Below, piece by piece: positions 13,334 through 63,026 of a stretch of DNA of 64,000 nt. The notes below the pieces were generated by a model that did no database searches, was not told the DNA's origin, and was given only the letters and a program-made list of their open reading frames with translations. The position numbers were made by a program, and so were the translations under genes. This DNA comes from Armatimonadota bacterium (GTDB taxonomy: Bacteria > Armatimonadota > HRBIN16). Every line of letters starts with the position of its first letter. Position 1 is the first letter of the stretch. Location of the stretch: contig OY781964.1 in assembly GCA_963677485.1 (NCBI GenBank), positions 4,064,001 to 4,128,000 on the forward strand, written 5' to 3'.

Positions 13334-16300
13334 ATGAACAGATCGAAATGGGTGCTGGTTTTGTATGTGATGGCACTTTGTATATTCCATGTGACACCGT
13401 TACGGGCGGATGACGAGGGATATATCCACGACTGGCTGGCTTGCGGAGCCTTCCGCGGTGATGACATCCATAGCAGCCTCGACCCGCTCTTCGCGACGGA
13501 CACCTTCCCATCCTCGGGCGGGTATTCTGCAGGGAAGAGCTGGCAGCCGATCCGTGCGGACGCCATGCCGGTCGACTTCGCGAAGGCGCAGCTCAACTGG
13601 GATGCGAATGAACACTGCACCGCATATACTTCGGTCTATGTCTATTCACCAGATAAGCTGAGCACCACTTTATCGGTAGGCTGTGACGACAAGTATGCGG
13701 CCTGGCTGAACGGCGTTGAAGTGGGTCGAAGTGACGCCTGGCAGTCCTATGGCGTCAACTGGTATAAGCAAAACGTGACGCTGCGTGCTGGCTGGAACCT
13801 GCTGCTGATGCGTGTGACCAACGGCACCTCCTTCTGGCAATTCTCCGCGCGGTTTTTGGATACCAACGGTCAGCCGATCACCAACTTGAAATACCAGACC
13901 GATAACCCTGACCCTAATGGCCTGTTCCAACGCCGCACGCGGTTATCATCCGAACTGAAGATCATTTCAGCCAGTATGGACGGAAACGGCAGGATTGATG
14001 GACAAAAGCTGCTGGTGAATGTCCGGCTGAGTGTAGCCAACATCGGAGCCACCGCATCGGCAGCATATCGGGTTCAGGCTAAAGATGCAGGACAGTCGGT
14101 TTTGGGTGATGTGGAGTTACCCGCTTTGAACGCGTGCCGCGCCGAGACGGTAGTGCTGGGCATCCCATATGAGAATCTAGTGCGTGCCTCACTGCTGAGC
14201 CGGCAGGATATCACTGTCGAATGTGGGCAGTCGAGGATGACCGTGCCGGTCGCACAGACTGAGATCATGGCGATGCTGTTCCGGCCATTACGGTATGAAT
14301 GGACGGCGACGCTCAACGATGGCCAGATACTCGCTGCCAACACACTCTCTCAGGCGCAGCTCAAACAGGTGAAATCCTATCATATCAGGGAGATGCTTCC
14401 TGAGTTTGTCAGAAAATACCAGCTTTCCGCAGGGATTGACATCGGTTGGGAGTGTGTCGGTCGGATGCTGGTAAATGGTAAAGAGGTGAAGGACCATTTC
14501 TCCGGCGATTCGGGCGACATTGCCCTACCGATGACACACGCTGCGGACAACCGAATTGATCTATTCGTGCCTGTCAATGCCGGAGGCGCGCCGCGATACG
14601 ACAACGGCTGGCTGCGCGTGAGGATACCAGCGGTAGAGAACTATCTGAAGAGCTACCAATTCGCACAGATACTGCTCAAAAAGACCTCCGGATCCAGCAC
14701 ACCGGAGTTGAAAGGCATCCTGAGTGCGATCTTGACCGGTGACCCAGCAAAGATTGAGGCGGCTGTGAAGACCGCAAGCTTGCCGATCGATAAACTGGCT
14801 CCGTCTGCTAAATCTTACACCGCCCACATGCTGGGCCACGGCCATATCGACCTGGCCTGGTTGTGGCAGACCTCCGAAATGATACAGGTCACCAAAGACA
14901 CATTCAAATCGGCCCTCAGCATGATGGATAAGTACCCGGAATTCAAATACTCCCAAAGCTCCGCGGCGACCTACTGGTGGATGGAGCAATATGCACCCGA
15001 CACGTTGGCCCAGATTAAACAGCGGGTTACGCAGGGTCGTTGGGACCCAGTGGGCGGGATGTGGTCGGAGTGTGACTCCAACATGCCCTCAGGCGAGGCA
15101 CTGGTGCGCCAATTCCTGTATGGTCAGCGGTATATGAAGCAGCAGCTTGGCAAATCCGCCACCGCGGGCTGGGCACCGGATACCTTCGGGCACGCTTGGT
15201 CACTCCCTCAGATCCTGCGCAAAAGTGGGCTGGAGAGCTACACGTTCATGCGATGCCGCCCATCCGATGAGCCGTTTTGGTGGGTTGGTCTTGATGGAAG
15301 CCGGATTTTCTGCAGCCCGACCGAGAACTACAACAGCTCTGTGGGTGACTGGATCGGTGAACGGCTGGTCAAAAACGAGACGACGACTAAGGGCGGTAAA
15401 GACATCGCCGTGGTCTACGGTGTGGGTGACCATGGCGGCGGGCCGACGATGCGGGATATTGAGGCGGCCATTGAGCTGGACAAAACAAAGGTCTTCCCGA
15501 ATGTGAAATTCGACACCGTTTACCAGGCCAACAAGGCATTGAGGGCGCAAAAAGCGGAGTATAAATCCGTCAACTCCGAGCTGAACTTCATCTTCCAGGG
15601 ATGTTATACCAGCCAGGCTGACGTGAAGAAGGCGAACCGTCTGCTGGAAAATCTGCTTCCTCAAAGCGAGGCTTTCTCCGTGGTGGCACAGCGATATGGA
15701 GGCAGCTACCCATCGAAGGACATCTTTACCGCCTGGCGGCATACCCTGTTCAACCAGTTCCATGACATCCTGGACGGCTCGGGCATACACCCGATCTACG
15801 ATGATGGCGCGAAGGAATACCAGCAGGCGATCAAGCTGGGACAGTCTGCCCTCTCGCTGTCACTGGATACCATCACGCGCAACATCAAAGTGAGCGGCGA
15901 CTCGGTGGTGGTGTATAACCCGATGGCCTGGTCGCGCACCGATGTGGTGGAGCTTCCCAATCCGGGCAACGCAGACATCAGTGTAGGCGACCCTGGCGAC
16001 TGCCAGAAGGAAGATGGTAAGCTGGTGTTTATCGCACGCGACGTGCCTGCGATGGGATACAAACTGTTCCCGATCCGTCAGACGGCACCTGCCTCAGCGG
16101 CACCAGTGAAGTCTTCGGTGAGTGCCACGCTCGATCCGAAAACCGGCTGTATGAGCAGCGTGAAGGATGCGGCGGGCCGTGAGCTGCTGATCAGCGGCAA
16201 GATGGCCAACGATCTGTGGCTTCACCGCGAAACTGGCGACGGCTGGAATATCTACCCGACCGGTGTCATTGACAAGATCACCGCGAATGCCGATATCAAC

Positions 16301-17095: not shown

Positions 17096-17185
17096 GGTTG
17101 GAGAGGAGCCAAGGAGTAAGGAGAAGAGAAGAAAAGAAACTGCTCCTGTTCTCCTTTTCTCCTCTGCTCCTGCCTCCTCCGAGCC
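17096..17185. repeat. Purine-rich then pyrimidine-rich ~8-bp unit arrays (GGAGnnnA / nnCTCCT) forming a loose palindrome between convergent genes
   Basis: ggagccaa-ggagtaa-ggagaaga-gaagaaaa followed by ctgctcct-gttctcct-tttctcct-ctgctcct. Confidence 0.7.
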
Positions 17186-20073: not shown

Positions 20074-20245
20074 TGTCTGAACCACGGATTACGCGGATTT
20101 ATAGGATTACACGGATGGAGAGCAAGGGAACGGGATTGTGCGCCTCTCCTCTCCATCCGAACCCATCCGTGTCATCCGTGTAATCCGTGGTTCAGACAAC
20201 CCTCTCCACCCTCCGCGACCTCCGCGTCTCAGCGTGAGGCAAATC
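20074..20245. repeat. Palindromic repeat element: two inverted TCTGAACC-(9-bp GGAT unit)x4 modules plus a CGCG-unit module
   Basis: tgtctgaaccacggattacgcggatttataggattacacggatggagag pairs with ctctccatccg...atccgtgtaatccgtggttcagaca; followed by ctccgcgacctccgcgtctcagcgtgaggc. Confidence 0.85.
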
Positions 20246-20277
20246 CCCCTCCTCGGGAGCGGTTTTCCTCACGCGGT

Positions 20278-36075: not shown

Positions 36076-36225
36076 GGAAGAAGAGCAGAAGTTAGGAGAG
36101 CAGGAGATAGGAGATGCTGTATCTTCTCCTATCTATCTGAACTTAACCGCGTAATCCGTGGTTCAGACAACCCAGCGGTTCAATCTCTCCTGACTCCTGC
36201 TCTCCTTACTCCTTACTCCATGCCC
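36076..36225. repeat. Composite intergenic repeat: 8-bp GGAG/CTCC arrays enclosing a collapsed TCTGAAC...GTTCAGA module
   Basis: gaagagca-gaagtta-ggagagca-ggagata-ggagat; tctgaacttaaccgcgtaatccgtggttcaga at 36136-36167; ctcctgactcctgctctccttactccttactcc. Confidence 0.8.
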
Positions 36226-55742: not shown

Positions 55743-55995
55743 GCGACGGGTTCCATCAGCCCGCTAAAGCAGGCCTCGTCACCCGTCGCTTATCATCTGG
55801 CTGTCCGCTGAAGCGGACGCGGGGATACGCCCTGCGCCGGCCGGAGCGAAGCGACGCCGGCCGCTAATGATCAGCCACGCGGTGAGGAAATCCTCGTAGG
55901 GACGCCAGTCCCGTGGGGTGACTGAACCCGTGGCCATTTGCCGAAATCATCAGTTACACCATGGGCTGCCGGGCATGCACGGGCGGGTGCTTGTT
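55743..55995. repeat. Multi-hairpin intergenic element (REP-like composite or structured RNA)
   Basis: GCGACGGG/CCCGTCGC, GTCCGCTGAAGCGGAC, GGCCGG-AGCGAAGCGA-CCGGCC and GCCACG/CGTGGC stems, plus the GGGCTGCCG motif copy. Confidence 0.5.
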
Positions 55996-56122
55996 ATTAA
56001 TATGTTACCGCTAACGCGGGAACACTGGGCGGCTTAACCCAGGTAGGTTAATGTAATAGCGGTACAATAACCGTAGGATCATAGCGCAAATTGACCATGA
56101 GTATGATCACGAGGAGACACCG

Positions 56123-57496
56123 ATGAAAAAGAGTGTGGTAAGCTGCCTGACCATGATGCTGGCGTTGTTGATTGTCAATACTGCGATGGCACAGACAGGA
56201 AATGAGATTGTCCGCGCGTTAAAAAGCAACCCTGTCTATATCAGCCCGAGTATGGAAGGGACGGCGGACGTCGCAAAACTTGAGTCTGTTGTCAGTAAAC
56301 TGAAGCCATTTAACACATATATAGTTGTGGTTCGGAATGTAAATGGCGGTTCTACGCGGCTGGATCAGCTATCCAAATGGCTCAGGACGCAGGTCGGTGT
56401 GAAGAACGGTGTGGTGATCGTGTTGAGCCAGACTGGTGTCCGGGCCAGCTCTGATCGTCGCACACCAGATGATGTGACCTCGGTGTTTCAGTCCACCAGA
56501 AGCCTGTATACCCGCGGTGATGCTACCGCGTTCTTGACGGCGTTCGCTGAGGGTATCGCCGCTGCACGAGCCACGTCACAGCCCATCTCCACGGGCATTG
56601 CTGGTCCAATCAACCTCTGGCCGGCTGTGGGCGGCATCGCACTGTTGGGCGGTGTGGCCTGGGTGGTGGTTCGCCGGAACCGCATGAAGGCGGTCCGTCA
56701 GTTTGCGGATAATCTGAAGCCCAAGCAGACGCAGGTGGTGGACAAGATCATGTCGCTGGACCGCGACATCCAGTTCCTTCCCACCAGCGAGGATGCGCTT
56801 CTGGCGCAGGAAGAGCGGCAAACCTCCGCGGAGCTGCTGGAAAAATCCACGGCCTTAATTAACACCGCCTCAAGGGCGGAGCAGGTGTGGCGTGCTGAAG
56901 AGCTGCTGGACCGCGCCATTGAGCGCACCCACCGATCTGAACTGTATGTGCAACGGGCGAAGGGTGAAAAGGTGGATGTGCCGAAAGAGAGCGTTGAGGA
57001 GAAGATGCGCGACAAGAAGGAGTTCCGCTTAAACGGCTGCTTCTTCTGCAGCAAACCCGAAGGCGTGAACATGGAGCCGGTGGAGATGACGCTGGGGAAC
57101 ACCCAGAAGCGTGTGTATGCCTGCCATGATTGCGCGGAGAAAGTGAAGCGCGGTGAACAACCGCTGATGGCCACCATATCCAGTGGTGACCGCCGGCGAC
57201 CATGGTATGAGGCGGATGACTACGACCCTCGCTACCAGTACGGCAGCTATGGCGGTATGGATATGTTCAGCATGATGGTGATGAGTGACATCATGTTTGG
57301 CGGTTGGGGTCATGCCGGTTACGGCAACAATGGCGGCTGGAACGATAATTCCGGCGGGTTTGGTGACGGCAACAGCGGTGCAGATAACGTGGACTTCGGC
57401 AACACCGACTTCGGCGGCGATGCTGGCGGAGGCGATTTTGACATCGGCGGTTTTGACGGCGGCGACATCGGCGACATCGGCGGCGGCGATTTCTAG
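56123..57496 (+). CDS. Membrane-anchored TPM-like protein with cytoplasmic coiled coil, Cys4 zinc finger and Gly/Asp-rich tail
   Basis: Signal peptide, one TM helix, CFFC...CHDC, terminal GGDF/GGDI repeats. Confidence 0.6.
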   Translation: MKKSVVSCLTMMLALLIVNTAMAQTGNEIVRALKSNPVYISPSMEGTADVAKLESVVSKLKPFNTYIVVVRNVNGGSTRLDQLSKWLRTQVGVKNGVVIVLSQTGVRASSDRRTPDDVTSVFQSTRSLYTRGDATAFLTAFAEGIAAARATSQPISTGIAGPINLWPAVGGIALLGGVAWVVVRRNRMKAVRQFADNLKPKQTQVVDKIMSLDRDIQFLPTSEDALLAQEERQTSAELLEKSTALINTASRAEQVWRAEELLDRAIERTHRSELYVQRAKGEKVDVPKESVEEKMRDKKEFRLNGCFFCSKPEGVNMEPVEMTLGNTQKRVYACHDCAEKVKRGEQPLMATISSGDRRRPWYEADDYDPRYQYGSYGGMDMFSMMVMSDIMFGGWGHAGYGNNGGWNDNSGGFGDGNSGADNVDFGNTDFGGDAGGGDFDIGGFDGGDIGDIGGGDF

Positions 57497-57530
57497 CGAT
57501 TACCCGGATTGGGAAGGGCTCACAGGAACG

Positions 57531-58602
57531 TCTGAACCACGGATTACACGGATTTACAGGATGACACGGATGGAGAGGGAACGCCTCACGCGAGGACGCG
57601 AAGGTCGCGAAGGTTTGGAGAGTGAAGCTTTGCTTAGGGATCGATCCGTCCGATTCTACTAATCCGTCGGACCGTACGTCTGAACCACGGATGACACGGA
57701 TTAATTGGATGATACGGATAAGAGACGGAACGCTTCATCCGAAGACTCTGAGGACACGAAAAGTCAGGGCGGCAAACGCCCCGGAGGGGCAAGATTCTTT
57801 ACAGCCACGGGTAAGCGAAGCGCAACCCGTGGAGGGTAATCAGAAACCATCTACCCACGAACGTGGGTCGAATGGTTCGATGGAGGTGTATATGTCTGGG
57901 TCACTGGTATCCAACCACGTTCATATAGTATTTAGCACCAGAAAACGAGCTGAATTGATCCGATCTGACCATATGCAGGCCATCATCGCCCAAATGGTCG
58001 ATGTAATAGAAAAATACCATTGTCCGGTTCGGGCGATCGGTGGAACTAGTAACCACATGCACATACTTATATCGCTCAACCAAGAGTGCCGATTGTCATA
58101 TGTGGTGAGGGATGTTAAGGTGGCAACCTCCCATTGGATGCATGAGCAAGGTCTGAATTTCGAATGGCAGGCAGGTTATGGTGCCTTTTCAGTGGGACAA
58201 CGTGAGTTGGGTTTGGTGACGAACTACATAAGAGCACAGGATATACACCATGCGCGGTTTACATTTGATGAGGAATTCATTAAGATGCTGCGGCATGCTC
58301 AGATTGATTTCAACCCGGAGTATGTATTTGGGTGACAGACCCCTTCGGGGTAGAGGGCTTGTTGCTGCTTACCAGGGGTATCGCTTCGCTCACCCCTGGC
58401 TGTAAGGAATCCTGCCCCTTCGGGGCGCCGGAGGATGCAGACGACATTGGTAATCGTAGATGTCAGACGATACAAGGTGTCGGAGATTGCTGACATTGGC
58501 AAACGCAGTATATGCTTCTCCCTCTCTCTCCTTCGCGGCCTTCGCGTCTTCGCGTGAGACATTCCCCTCCATCCGGGCCATCCGTGTAATCCGTGGTTCA
58601 GA
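57531..58602. mobile_element. IS200-like / REP-associated Y1 transposase locus bounded by nested inverted repeats
   Basis: Outer IR ~57531-57627 / 58514-58602; inner IR 57777-57832 / 58372-58427; innermost hairpins 57851-57869 / 58338-58353; tnpA in the middle. Confidence 0.7.
57892..58335 (+). CDS. tnpA: IS200/IS605-family Y1 (HUH) transposase, 147 aa
   Basis: HIVFSTRKR, HUH motif NHMHIL, FEWQAGYGAFSV and catalytic-Tyr helix NYIRAQ; GGAGG before ATG 57892. Confidence 0.93.
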   Translation: MSGSLVSNHVHIVFSTRKRAELIRSDHMQAIIAQMVDVIEKYHCPVRAIGGTSNHMHILISLNQECRLSYVVRDVKVATSHWMHEQGLNFEWQAGYGAFSVGQRELGLVTNYIRAQDIHHARFTFDEEFIKMLRHAQIDFNPEYVFG

Positions 58603-58675
58603 TAAAAAGCCAGCGGTTGAGACAATCCCGTTCCTCTTCTCCTCATCTCCTCCACTCCTGACTTCTCCCTCCATA
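58603..58675. repeat. CCAGCGGTT/CAATCCCGTTCC linker plus CTCC-unit pyrimidine array
   Basis: Shares ccagcggtt...caatc with 36172-36185 and caatcccgttcc with the reverse complement of ~20126-20139; ttctcct-catctcct-ccactcct-gacttct units. Confidence 0.65.
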
Positions 58676-58762: not shown

Positions 58763-59290
58763 ATGAAGATTACCGCACAAGAAGAATATGGACTTCGATG
58801 CCTGATGAACCTCGCTAGAAGGGTGCCGGGTCAGACCGTGAATGCCCGCGAAATATCCGAAGGCGAAGGACTGTCGGTGGCATACGTGGAAAAAATCCTG
58901 CATCAGCTCACACGAAGCGGCCTCACCGAAAGCGTGCGAGGTGCTTCCGGTGGATACCGCCTGAAACGCATGAATGATGCCATCACATTGCGCCAGGCGC
59001 TAGATGCGCTGGGCGGCGTGATCAACACCATGGATGTATGCGACCAGTACACCGGCTCGCATGAGGTGTGTGTTCACCAGCATGCAGGGTGTGGTATCCG
59101 AAGCGTTTGGGGATTCATCGGCGACTATCTGTCGCTGGTATTCGACAGCATCACCCTGAGGGATTTAGTCGACGGCAATTTCCCGATGCAGATGGAGCCG
59201 CTCCGGTATGCCAGGGAATCGCTGAGTCCAGCAAATACCGAAAACACTGATCAATTCGTAGCTGCGCCACAGGAGGCAGAACTTAAATGA
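58763..59290 (+). CDS. Rrf2-family Fe-S cluster regulator (IscR/SufR-like, three Cys)
   Basis: YGLRCLMNLA, YVEKIL, SVRGASGGYRL and C-x9-C-x6-C. Confidence 0.92.
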   Translation: MKITAQEEYGLRCLMNLARRVPGQTVNAREISEGEGLSVAYVEKILHQLTRSGLTESVRGASGGYRLKRMNDAITLRQALDALGGVINTMDVCDQYTGSHEVCVHQHAGCGIRSVWGFIGDYLSLVFDSITLRDLVDGNFPMQMEPLRYARESLSPANTENTDQFVAAPQEAELK

Positions 59291-60063
59291 GCCAGCAACC
59301 ACTTATAAATATTGAAAATCTGCATGTGTCCGTGCAAGGCAAGCCCATCCTGAAGGGTCTGAACCTGATGATGATGCCCGGCGAGATACACGCCATCATG
59401 GGCCCGAATGGTTCAGGTAAAAGCACACTTGCCTCCACGTTGATGGGCCACCCGAGCTTCGAAATTACCGATGGTTCCGTCAGCTTCCGTGGTCAGGACC
59501 TGCTGGCAATGAGCGTGGATGAGCGCGCCCGGGCGGGGGTCTTTCTGGCATTCCAGTATCCGGTGGCTATCCCGGGTGTGTCAGTGGCCAGCTTCTTGCG
59601 AACGGCTATGAAGTCACTGCATGGTGCAGACATGAGCGCCCGCGACTTCCGCGCTTCCTTGAAGAAAGAGTTCAAGCACCTCACCATGGACGAAAAGTTC
59701 GCCACACGGTATGTGAATGACGGTTTCTCGGGCGGTGAGAAAAAGCGGCTGGAAATCGCCCAACTGGGCATGATCAAACCGCACCTGGCGATCCTTGATG
59801 AAACAGACAGCGGCCTGGACATCGACGCACTGAAAATAGTGGCCGAAAATGTGATGCGCAACTTCAACGAGTCCGGCGAAATGTCACTTCTGGTGATCAC
59901 TCACTACCAGCGGCTTCTCCGGTATATCCCTCCCATGGTGGTGCATGTGCTGGCGGACGGCCGCATCATCAAAAACGGCGACAAAGAGTTGGCGCACGAG
60001 CTTGAAACCCGTGGCTACGACTGGGTATTGGCGGAGGCTGGAGTTCAGCAGGAGGTCAAGTAG
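59287..60063 (+). CDS. sufC: Fe-S cluster assembly ATPase SufC
   Basis: HAIMGPNGSGKST, FLAFQYP, GFSGGEKKR, LDETDSGLD and ITHYQRLL motifs. Confidence 0.97.
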   Translation: MSQQPLINIENLHVSVQGKPILKGLNLMMMPGEIHAIMGPNGSGKSTLASTLMGHPSFEITDGSVSFRGQDLLAMSVDERARAGVFLAFQYPVAIPGVSVASFLRTAMKSLHGADMSARDFRASLKKEFKHLTMDEKFATRYVNDGFSGGEKKRLEIAQLGMIKPHLAILDETDSGLDIDALKIVAENVMRNFNESGEMSLLVITHYQRLLRYIPPMVVHVLADGRIIKNGDKELAHELETRGYDWVLAEAGVQQEVK

Positions 60064-61479
60064 ATGGCTGCAGATGACAACGTCCGGAGCATAAGCCCGG
60101 AATACGAATACGGATTTCACGACGATGATTTCGTCGCTGCCTTCAAAAGTGAGCGCGGACTGACGAAACGCGTGGTTGAGATGATCTCCGGCATGAAGAA
60201 TGAGCCGACCTGGATGCTGGAACAGCGGCTGAAGGCGCTCGCTATCTTCGAGAGCAAGCCGATGCCCACCTGGGGAAACACCCAGATGCTCAACGAGATC
60301 GACTTTGACAACATCTTTTACTACATCAAACCCTCCGAAAAGATGGGCAGAACCTGGGACGATGTGCCGACTTCAATCCGCGACACCTTTGAGAAGCTGG
60401 GCATTCCAGAAGCTGAGCGCAGCCTTCTGGCTGGCGTCAGCGCGCAATATGAATCTGAAGTGGTGTATCACTCCATCCGCGAGGACCTGGAGGCGCAAGG
60501 CGTCATCTTTACGGACATGGACTCGGCGCTGCGCGAATACCCCGACATCGTGAAGCGCTATTTCGGCAAGGTGATCCCATCGGCGGACAATAAGTTCTCC
60601 GCGCTGAATACGGCCGTATGGTCAGGTGGATCCTTTGTGTATGTTCCTCCGGGCAAGAATGTGGAGATCCCTCTGCAAGCCTACTTCCGCATCAACACGG
60701 AGAACATGGGACAGTTTGAGCGCACGCTGATCATTGCGGACGAAGGCTCCCGCGTGCACTACGTGGAGGGCTGCACCGCACCGATCTACAGCTCCGACTC
60801 GCTGCACGGCGCCGTGGTGGAACTAGTGGCGCATAAGAGCGCGCATGTTCGCTACACCACCATCCAAAACTGGAGCAAGAACGTCTACAACCTCGTGACC
60901 AAGCGGGCCGTAGCGCATGAAGATGCGGTGATTGAGTGGGTGGATGGCAACATGGGCAGCAAGCTGACCATGAAGTATCCGGCCGTCTACCTGATGGGCC
61001 GTGGAGCGCGTGGAGACATGCTGAGCATCGCCTTTGCAGGCCGTGACCAGCACCAGGACACCGGCGCCAAGATGGTTCACCTGGCACCCGACACCAGCAG
61101 CACCATCGTCAGCAAGTCTATCAGCAAGGACGGCGGTCGGGCAGGCTACCGCGGTCTGGTTCAGGTGAACCCGGGGTGCACCGGCGTGAAAGCGAACGTG
61201 CGTTGCGATGCGTTGATCCTGGACGACCAGTCCCGCAGCGACACCTATCCCACGATGAACATCCGTGAGAGCGGCGTGCGCGTGGAGCATGAGGCCACCG
61301 TCAGCAAGGTCGGCGACGAGCAGTTGTTCTACCTGATGAGTAGGGGACTGACCGAGCAACAGGCCGTCACCACCATCATCAATGGCTTCTTCGAGCCGTT
61401 TGCACGGGAGCTTCCGCTGGAATACGCAGTGGAGTTAAACCGGCTGATCGCACTGGAGATGGAGGGCTCGGTAGGGTAA
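60064..61479 (+). CDS. sufB: Fe-S cluster assembly protein SufB
   Basis: [38 protein letters not shown] and [15 protein letters not shown] motifs. Confidence 0.98.
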
Positions 61480-62699
61480 TGGACACAACACAACAGACTA
61501 TAATGCAAAGTGCAGAGACTATAAGCCAGAGTTTGCGTGAGAACGCCTGGATGACCGAACAGCGGGCCCAGCAGGCAGAGCTGTTCAGCAGCCTGTCGCA
61601 GCCCACCCGGAGCGACGAGGGCTGGCGGCGTGCCGATATCAGCGACCTTAACCTGAACGCGTTGGCTGAGCAGCCAAATGAGTTTGAGGCCAGCTTTGGC
61701 GATGAGTGCAATACCGCACGTGAACGCGGCGTGTTTCTGGGCAGCGTGGCCACGGCGGTGGGCCATCACCCGGAAATGATGCGCGGACTTTTTGCACAGA
61801 TTCAAGATGACGACGTGTTCTTGAAACTCACCAGCATGGCGCGGGCACTGTATGGCAAGGGCAGCGCGGTGGTGGTACCCGAAGGGTATGACGCACCCAC
61901 GCCGATCCGTATGCTCAGCCATCAGGCGGGTGCCGTCGGGTTCACAAGGAACCTGGTGGTGCTTCAGCCGCACAGCCGCTTATTGGTGGTAGACGACCAG
62001 AACAGCCCAGATGGTGTGGACGCCTTCCATTCCGGTGTCACTGATCTGTTCGTGGGAGAGGGCGCGGAGCTGGTCTACGTGCAGTTCCAGCGTTGGGGAC
62101 ACGGCATGAGGGCCTTCCAGCATCAGCGCGCCGTGCTGTCCAAGGATGCCAGCCTGACCACCATCACGGTGGCACTGGGCGGTAAGCAGCACAAAGCGCA
62201 GGTGGAAAGCGCGTTGTCGGCACCAGGTGCCAGCAGCAACATGCTCGGGCTGGTGTTTGGGAACCAGAAACAACAGTTTGACATCCGCACCGTGCTGCGG
62301 CATATCTCGGCTGACACGCAGAGCGATCTGCTGTTCAAGAGCGCGCTGGAGGACGAGGCCTATTCCGTCTACTCGGGCTTGATCCGCATCGACTTCGGTG
62401 CGCAGCGCACGAATGCGTACCAGAAGAACGAGAACCTGCTGTTAAGCAGCAAGGCCCATGCAGAGGCATTGCCTGACCTGGAAATCCTGGCAGACGATGT
62501 GAAGTGCTCGCACGGCGCCACCATCTCTCCTGTGGATGATGAGATGCTGTTCTACCTGGCCAGCCGAGGCATGGACAAACGGTCGGCGGAGCGCTTGATT
62601 GTGGAGGGCTTCTTCCGGCCGGTCATCGACCGGATCATCAGCGAAGAAATGCAGGACATCGTGACCAACGAGTTGAATACCAAAATCCGACACCAATAA
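61479..62699 (+). CDS. sufD: Fe-S cluster assembly protein SufD
   Basis: EGWRRAD, NLLLS, LEILADDVKCSHGAT and LFYLASRG motifs. Confidence 0.93.
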   Translation: MDTTQQTIMQSAETISQSLRENAWMTEQRAQQAELFSSLSQPTRSDEGWRRADISDLNLNALAEQPNEFEASFGDECNTARERGVFLGSVATAVGHHPEMMRGLFAQIQDDDVFLKLTSMARALYGKGSAVVVPEGYDAPTPIRMLSHQAGAVGFTRNLVVLQPHSRLLVVDDQNSPDGVDAFHSGVTDLFVGEGAELVYVQFQRWGHGMRAFQHQRAVLSKDASLTTITVALGGKQHKAQVESALSAPGASSNMLGLVFGNQKQQFDIRTVLRHISADTQSDLLFKSALEDEAYSVYSGLIRIDFGAQRTNAYQKNENLLLSSKAHAEALPDLEILADDVKCSHGATISPVDDEMLFYLASRGMDKRSAERLIVEGFFRPVIDRIISEEMQDIVTNELNTKIRHQ

Positions 62700-62717
62700 T
62701 CATCAAGGATCAAACAC

Positions 62718-63026
62718 ATGAAATATCTATTGCAGGCATCAAACGACATAGAGAAAGGCTCCACCAAGGTGTTCGTGGTGGCTGGTCGGCGCATTCTTCT
62801 GGCACATACCAAAGAGGGCGAATATTACGCCGTGGACGATCTGTGCTCACATGATGGCGCCGCGCTGGATACCGGCGAGCTTTACGGCTATGAGGTGGAG
62901 TGCCCGCGCCATGGTGCCTGCTTTGATATCCGCAGCGGCAAAGTACTGACCCTGCCCGCCACCGAAGACATCACCAGCTACCCTGTGACGGTGGATGATG
63001 CCGGAATCAGCGTGGAGATCAACTGA
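62718..63026 (+). CDS. Rieske-type [2Fe-2S] ferredoxin
   Basis: CSH...CPRHG..FD Rieske motif. Confidence 0.93.
   Translation: MKYLLQASNDIEKGSTKVFVVAGRRILLAHTKEGEYYAVDDLCSHDGAALDTGELYGYEVECPRHGACFDIRSGKVLTLPATEDITSYPVTVDDAGISVEIN

Follow-up and report, generated by a model that had tools for sequence, protein, structure and literature searches.

The gene tnpA, which codes for a Y1 (HUH) transposase, lies between two inverted arms of hairpins, and outer repeats are found beyond the arms on both sides. By "the window" we mean the whole stretch of DNA that was analysed, which is 64 kb long. The features are listed below by coordinates and strand. Each arm contains three hairpins, termed A, B and A', and R1 is a covariance model of the arm that is described further on.

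57530..57760, + strand: outer repeats, left, with two tandem sets (57530-57620 and 57678-57760) and a degenerate inverted piece (57641-57667)
57774..57874, + strand: left arm (A-B-A'), reading towards the gene; R1 matches 57774-57848 with 27.6 bits, E 3.8e-4
57778..57790, + strand: hairpin A of the left arm, with a 5-bp stem and a GGA loop; the proposed TnpA-bound hairpin
57803..57832, + strand: AG and hairpin B of the left arm, 12 nt after A; B itself is 57805-57832, 28 nt, with a small hairpin inside
57853..57868, + strand: hairpin A' of the left arm, 20 nt after B; its stem reaches 57843-57878
57882..57886, + strand: GGAGG, a ribosome-binding-like site seen in the sequence, 5 nt before the tnpA ATG
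57892..58335, + strand: tnpA, 147 aa, a transposase of the Y1 (HUH) type whose motifs are those of TnpA-Y1 subclass 1.2
58333..58430, - strand: right arm (A-B-A'), reading towards the gene; R1 matches over its full length with 39.1 bits, E 1.7e-6
Right arm parts, - strand: A' 58339-58351 (3 nt past the stop codon), B 58372-58399, AG 58400-58401, A 58414-58426
58530..58602, - strand: outer repeats, right, an inverted copy of the 9-bp-unit arms

A 147-aa TnpA with intact HMH and tyrosine motifs and no tnpB had been reported in a preliminary description of this DNA, and the open reading frame, its motifs, the Pfam match and the neighbouring genes all agree. The protein carries NHMH (H55-M-H57), the pair W92-Q93 and the segment YIRAQDIHH, which corresponds to Y112-xxx-Q116-xx-H119-H120, together with a C-terminal helix. 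Its match to Pfam Y1_Tnp has an E value of 4.8e-21, where the Pfam core covers residues 8-116 and the helix residues 125-135. The NCBIfam scores fall under both relevant cut-offs (53.9 against 55 for IS200, and 26.8 against 80 for RAYT). No tnpB was found among the adjacent genes by inspection and Pfam, and a crude motif test for tnpB was negative at 81 of 81 loci, comprising the window and its relatives. The GC content of tnpA is 46%, compared with 55% for the window. A promoter scan was uninformative, with two sites against 1.7 expected.

Judged by its motifs, the protein is a subclass 1.2 TnpA, close to the TnpA of IS200 and not a class 2 RAYT. The RAYT signature Y---NP is absent, and Y---Q takes its place. 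The Y---Q--HH signature is common to 93 of 106 homologues and recurs in 71 of 73 intact relatives (seven of the 80 relatives were left out for stop codons or length). In trees, eight IS200/IS605 references form a clade without the window protein (SH-aLRT 99.5), and BLAST scores of that protein against the references are at most 55 bits. Four RAYT references likewise form their own clade without it, with a support of 100. The set of 1.2-like proteins was monophyletic in FastTree (0.99) and was not in IQ-TREE, where a long RAYT branch falls inside the set with zero support. It is because of this disagreement that the subclass assignment rests on motifs, and the RAYT branch is too long for reliable rooting of TnpA trees. 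The predicted structure (pLDDT 93) resembles IS608, ISDra2 and the E. coli RAYT about equally, and TM-scores of 0.62-0.65 for both insertion sequences and RAYTs mean that structural comparison gives no separation between them.

Upstream of the locus, at 56123-57496, lies a gene for a 457-aa protein that has no Pfam match; it shows a probable signal peptide, a tract of the form CxxC-x-CxxC and a tail rich in Gly and Asp. At 55745-56060, between divergent genes, there is a GC-rich intergenic stretch with several hairpins, one of which resembles the inner loop of hairpin B; neither R1 nor Rfam gives a hit in this stretch. Downstream, the region 58763-63026 encodes an Rrf2 regulator, identified with Pfam, followed by what by inspection are likely sufC, sufB and sufD and a Rieske-type protein.

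Inner arms and outer repeats

The inverted repeats closest to the gene pair 57777-57856 with 58348-58427 over 80 nt, with 78% complementarity. The score of this alignment is 80, compared with a maximum of 31 among 500 shuffles. The preliminary description had depicted the transposase as wrapped in three nested layers of inverted repeats. Its sequences and inner inverted repeats were all found where it had located them. The layers themselves required revision. Because the innermost hairpins (A' in the left arm among them) and the middle inverted pair align continuously, they constitute one arm of about 95 nt with three hairpins, which is inverted on either side of tnpA. What had been taken for three layers is one inverted pair of arms within an unrelated outer repeat.

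In the window the arm follows the plan A, 10-12 nt, AG and B, about 20 nt, A'. The link from A to AG is 12 nt in the left arm, compared with a family mode of 10, and R1 leaves the left A' unaligned, this hairpin having come from a descriptor search. The loops of A and A' in the right arm are both GAA. Only the left arm folds better than shuffles (z -4.9 and -5.6); for the right arm taken by itself the z values are -1.5 and -0.9. The four bases before B are ACAG, not GTAG. Searched across the 64-kb window, R1 finds both arms, otherwise nothing below E 0.4, and no gene-free arm.

Relatives were taken from a scan of GTDB genomes, as the best 80 of 601 matches, and the host phyla among these 80 loci include Acidobacteriota, Bacteroidota, Planctomycetota and Verrucomicrobiota. 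When flanks were compared with no motif assumed, an inverted-repeat score of at least 30 was reached at 62 of 79 loci with two flanks, as opposed to 2 of 569 control ORFs from the same loci, a control set that includes spurious ORFs and coding flanks. R1 was made from one arm each of 38 loci, leaving the window out. Over all 80 loci it identifies an adjacent arm at 68, a convergent pair at 47 and a direct pair at 2; ten of the 80 relatives have no R1 match within 1 kb of tnpA. At the 42 loci outside the training set, which are the harder ones, an adjacent arm was found at 30 and a convergent pair at 13. R1 had no match at any of 13 IS or RAYT reference regions, the flanks of most of these being only 150-600 nt long. 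Three tnpA genes or fragments that happen to lie in the flanks, without having been selected, also adjoin an arm, as a convergent pair in loci L046 and L005 and as one arm in L012.

Hairpin statistics are based on 106 R1 hits, which are those from the non-training loci and the window. The distance from A to B, including AG, is 12 nt in 83 of the 106, and in 67 of them 21-25 nt separate B from A'. Before B the sequence AG is present in 90, TAG in 39 and GTAG in 4 of these hits. Compensatory changes occur at all 18 base pairs among the non-training hits, and since the arms were chosen or aligned by structure, this covariation serves as supporting evidence only. By eye, the CT cut site that would be predicted from an AG guide appears at no fixed place on the strand that carries the GNA loops. 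A correlation between arms and proteins (Mantel r 0.40, n=65, 0 of 2000 permutations) was considered as proof of their co-evolution and rejected, because shared ancestry alone would suffice to produce it.

The arm varies among relatives. Several have A hairpins and no B, and L029, L035 and others are without clear arms on one or both sides. The flanks of a Bacteroidota clade (L042, L044, L057, L064, L073 and L078) have no hairpin B. In these flanks A is followed at about 9 nt by GTAG or a near match. GTAG is the canonical REP tag, but here it lies 3' of the hairpin. By eye, several Bacteroidota loci missed by R1 likewise have no B and show A, then about 10 nt, then TAG. Because B is absent while A and its spacing are kept, A is the constant part of the arm and B the variable one.

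In the upstream flanks of L001, L003, L011 and L016, A' contains GGAGG and stops 5-7 nt short of the start codon, an arrangement that could damp the translation of tnpA. In the window, unlike these four loci, GGAGG lies just outside the A' stem.

The outer inverted pair and its tandem duplication on the left, both reported in the preliminary description, are present. The pairs are 57531-57563 with 58570-58602 and 57577-57613 with 58530-58566, and the left duplication is spaced at 148 nt. As an alternative, it had been proposed that the element targets the centre of the outer palindrome. That the cassette targets or works with this palindrome, so that the two form one nested system, strikes us as highly improbable. 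The cassette does sit within an inverted pair of the outer family in the window, and a lineage-specific link may exist (the context comparison omitted the two closest proteins, P0002 and P0003). However, among the best 80 of 601 matches no relative has the outer motifs within 500 nt of tnpA by pattern, and local alignment found one outer arm in 0 of 80 and the other in 1 of 80, which is background level. Tracts with a 9-bp period on both sides of tnpA occur in the window alone among 81 loci. The outer family is also found without tnpA, both in the window (an inverted pair at 20075-20197, within 20075-20250, and 36151-36168) and elsewhere in the loci of relatives (22 pattern matches). The arrangement around tnpA is asymmetric as well, with extra copies on the left and a spacer of about 100 nt on the right. 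On these counts the targeting claim finds no support, and the outer repeats were rejected as a part of the tnpA system. As judged from their distribution, they are an independent family that shares the same intergenic space and stands outside the tnpA unit.

The outer repeats are part of a modular family of tandem units in the window, seen at 20075-20250, 36151-36219, 57530-57760 and 58530-58660. This family comprises 9-bp units of two kinds, GA-rich tracts of 7-8 bp (17143-17172 and 36082-36219) and gene-less intergenic inverted pairs, and related 9-bp pairs occur in loci L012, L016, L031, L037, L051 and L053. The interval 58433-58520, which separates the right arm from the outer repeat, holds a 17-nt direct repeat (at 58443 and 58492) and a 14-nt inverted repeat. 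In locus L050, a GxxExxY-type protein with a match to Pfam PDDEXK_3 is encoded at 14173-14583, which is 3.7 kb from tnpA. Proteins of this type were considered as a mobiliser of the outer repeats and rejected, as the locus with the sole such gene has neither of the two patterns and the literature gave nothing relevant.

Gene-free copies and the position of the gene

Thirty R1 hits lie more than 1 kb from tnpA. Five of them adjoin a second tnpA-like ORF, leaving 25 tnpA-free copies in 13 loci, over 0.99 Mb, and 24 of these 25 fall outside long ORFs. When the arms of 68 loci were compared, 18 of the 30 distant copies matched the arm of their own locus best and 12 did not. At 35 of 47 loci the best match of the left arm is the right arm of the locus itself. 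Seven gene-less convergent doublets are present, as are several tandem arrays. When seventeen distant copies picked as cognate were aligned with their gene-adjacent arms, identity climbed one base ahead of A and fell off about five bases past A'.

In four species pairs, tnpA lies between the same neighbours. Within these pairs tnpA is 71-85% identical and the neighbours about 65-96%, with dS values of 0.9-2.2 and dN/dS ratios of 0.06-0.14. Paralogues are divergent, with an identity of 45% in L046 and of 54% to the window TnpA for P0003, which is probably its paralogue on the same replicon. At an identity of at least 32%, the window TnpA matches 2 of 72,556 plasmid records, both of about 600 kb, and none of 50,697 phage records. 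At E 1e-5, an IS605 TnpA query has 2,915 plasmid matches and the window TnpA 126, in a plasmid collection where the host phyla are sparsely represented. Neither the inner nor the outer arms had a BLASTN match among the plasmids.

An autonomous insertion sequence with inverted ends would also produce tnpA between arms. Arm, gene and arm would then move as a unit, and the gene-less doublets would be MITE-like deletion derivatives. The seven doublets do resemble an element minus its gene, and L005 has a second tnpA copy that is internally truncated, is flanked by both arms and is 83% identical. Several genomes carry more than one gene, the hosts span many phyla, and the gene is low in GC (at 70 of 71 loci, lower than the flanking DNA). 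Among the 22 tnpA pairs of highest similarity, 17 share no neighbour, an outcome that fits movement or merely distant hosts. Even so, we regard this account as unlikely. The gene has kept its position in the four species pairs at the dS values given above, its paralogues are divergent, it is nearly absent from plasmids and phages, and no target duplication is evident by eye in the aligned copies. In addition, transposition in the IS200/IS605 family is strand-specific (PMC8266576), so that both ends must lie on one strand, whereas an inverted pair of arms is seen at 47 of 80 loci and a direct pair at 2.

Truncated tnpA pieces with one or both arms were seen near the intact gene in L005 (11655-12049), L017 (929-1293), L043 (10701-10904) and L019 (9629-9772). 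Such pieces suggest local duplication or rearrangement at the arms.

Acido-Lenti-1 and a proposed DNA substrate

As identified with Rfam, the A-B part of the relatives' arms is Acido-Lenti-1 (RF01687) read from the other strand. There were 27 Acido-Lenti-1 hits in the 27 relatives' loci searched, which included a second set of seven chosen as arm-rich. A comparison of coordinates shows that all but one of these hits (26 of 27) coincide at least in part with the A-B portion of an R1 hit, and all 26 are on the opposite strand. Both models contain two hairpins and a 12-nt link. The Rfam model differs in describing the opposite strand, omitting A' and classing the family as an sRNA. In the window, RF01687 stays below its gathering score (37 bits), and B and its link are longer than usual there; at the gathering score Rfam reports one tRNA only, in addition to two chance hits with E of about 2. 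Because the window arms miss the Rfam threshold, their connection to Acido-Lenti-1 runs through the relatives.

The arms could instead act as RNA, be it a true Acido-Lenti-1 sRNA, a regulator of tnpA expression or a guide, with DNA recognition being secondary. Rfam lists the A-B part as an sRNA, and Weinberg 2010 rated Acido-Lenti-1 as 'probably' RNA (PMC2864571). Covariation of the stems fits RNA as well as DNA, and in some loci the ribosome-binding site, 5-7 nt ahead of the start codon, falls within A'. We nevertheless give this possibility very little weight. On the Rfam strand the loops are UNC triloops, whereas on the other strand they are GNA triloops, which are unusually stable in DNA (PMC3201870, PMC13037366). 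The three-base loops of hairpin A are GNA in 75 of 97 cases and TNC in 0, and those of A' are GNA in 57 and TNC in 6 of 81. The motif flanks an enzyme of single-stranded DNA on both sides and in inverted orientation, and the 5' leader in the window folds as RNA no better than shuffles (z -1.15). The published seed also has the character of a dispersed repeat, in that 53 of the 54 rows in one part come from a single genome, many of them in tandem, and 11 rows are spread round one chromosome (PMC2864571). The Acido-Lenti-1 'RNA' is probably DNA that is copied around by a subclass 1.2 enzyme.

At the level of sequence, these comparisons establish the architecture of the unit, its conservation across phyla, the convergent orientation of its arms, the gene-free copies, the kept position of the gene and purifying selection upon it. 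The DNA-type GNA loops, the kept position and the dN/dS ratios point to a resident, RAYT-like enzyme that would act on single-stranded DNA repeats. The explanation that we favour, and consider likely, is a unit of REPtron-like organisation whose enzyme is of the IS200 type, in which a resident subclass 1.2 gene would sit amid inverted copies of its own single-stranded DNA substrate. Inheritance of TnpA would be mostly vertical, with the gene staying put. The substrate would be a single-stranded element of three hairpins in the order A, about 10 nt, AG and B, about 22 nt, A'. A putatively dimeric TnpA would bind the short GNA-loop hairpins A and A' on exposed single strands, nick at a set distance, probably close to the AG that lies some 10 nt beyond A on the 3' side, and rejoin the strands, and in this way the arms would be copied or moved. 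As the arms would be active on opposite strands, the gene could not depart in a single circle of single-stranded DNA.

A RAYT-like resident nuclease with non-GTAG repeats had been suggested in the preliminary description. Convergent arms across phyla, cognate gene-free copies, conserved gene position, purifying selection and the presence of GTAG in 4 of 106 arms bear out that suggestion. For the protein it is borne out by organisation, which is REPtron-like, and contradicted by sequence, which places the enzyme in subclass 1.2 and outside the RAYT clade.

A number of proteins, among them P0107-P0125 and amounting to 19 of 149 new top hits of the family profile, are 260-325 aa long and have two HUH motifs. 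Three of these long proteins were tested and have two Y1_Tnp domains, the second half more often keeping Y---Q--HH. They look like single-chain TnpA dimers.

A further reading, tentative and on balance doubtful, concerns the origin of the arm. Each arm may be an IS608-style right end (A and its 10-nt 3' link) and left end (A' and its 5' link of about 20 nt) joined head-to-tail on one strand round a dispensable B, which would be cut out at its feet by a TnpA dimer, and this would make the arrays and doublets. The dimer on A and A' would excise, insert or exchange B as cargo. In IS608, cleavage falls 10 nt beyond the right hairpin on the 3' side and 19 nt ahead of the left hairpin on the 5' side (PMC3597680), and the arm links (10 nt on the 3' side and about 22 nt on the 5' side) recall these linkers of 10 nt (right) and 19 nt (left), a likeness that we offer as a lead only. 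The B-less Bacteroidota variants and the single-chain double-TnpA proteins fit such a fusion of ends and prove nothing. If it were true, subclass 1.2 and its 'Acido-Lenti-1' would stand as a surviving form between IS200 transposons and REP/RAYT systems, one that arose apart from the class 2 RAYTs, and the DNA of transposon ends would have been catalogued as an abundant non-coding RNA.

With the favoured REPtron-like unit, a widespread transposase subclass would gain a substrate, and a repeat catalogued as RNA would gain a function. Against the family profile, E values of 1e-30 or below are reached by 1,649 representatives at 50% identity. The unit also suggests that IS200-type enzymes have settled into a REP-like life where GTAG REPs are not the rule. 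Many 'IS200/IS605 family transposase' annotations in the host phyla may denote non-mobile genes.

Comparison with known systems

Transposases of the IS200/IS605 family, IS608 in particular, are the closest protein relatives with solved structures, and the short hairpins are a shared feature. The ends of these elements lie on one strand, whereas the arms described here are inverted (47 of 80 loci have a convergent pair, 2 a direct one). There is also no tnpB here and no sign of recent copies in the loci compared, and the IS references form a clade of their own.

Di Nocera 2013 described TIRtrons and TIRYTs, in which tyrosine transposases are associated with long TIRs, some of them 'double palindromic' (PMC3733652). 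An Acidobacteria group is included among them and some of the TIRs form repeat families, and in both respects they resemble the loci considered here. Quentin's subclasses set TIRtrons apart, the 26 examples falling in 2.1, 2.2 and 2.5 and none in 1.2, and some overlap with the present loci may still exist.

REPtrons and REPINs, which belong to groups 2 and 3 of the RAYTs or TnpA-REPs, likewise consist of a resident HUH-Y1 gene amid inverted palindromic repeats (PMC8266576, 10.1101/2021.07.10.451892). Gene-free copies, doublets and arrays elsewhere in the genome are shared too, as is purifying selection. The REPtron enzyme belongs to class 2 and has Y---NP, whereas the enzyme here belongs to class 1 and has Y---Q. 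The repeat is also different, in that three hairpins stand at fixed spacing and GTAG precedes B in 4 of 106 arms. The organisation is REPtron-like for the family, whose relatives have gene-free copies, the 64-kb window itself holding none.

The published group that most nearly matches the protein is subclass 1.2 of Quentin 2018, which is characterised by Y---Q--HH, a length of about 148 aa, low copy number and the entry 'REP: no' (PMC6006769). The window TnpA agrees with it in length (147 aa compared with a median of 148), in WQ and Y---Q--HH, in a C-terminal extension of about 30 aa, in the lack of tnpB and probably in its divergent paralogues. The HuH motif differs, being NHMH in the window and DH[IV]H in the published members. 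Most members here carry inverted three-hairpin arms, in contrast to the published entry of no REPs, and the repeat table of that study has no row for subclass 1.2 (PMC6006769). Literature searches, whose coverage lay outside subscription journals, found no paper that links subclass 1.2 with Acido-Lenti-1. Subclass 1.2 (PMC6006769) and Acido-Lenti-1 (Rfam RF01687, PMC2864571) have each been described on their own. The preliminary description had spoken of an undescribed system, and with each half already in print, that term applies only to the link of the subclass to the repeat.
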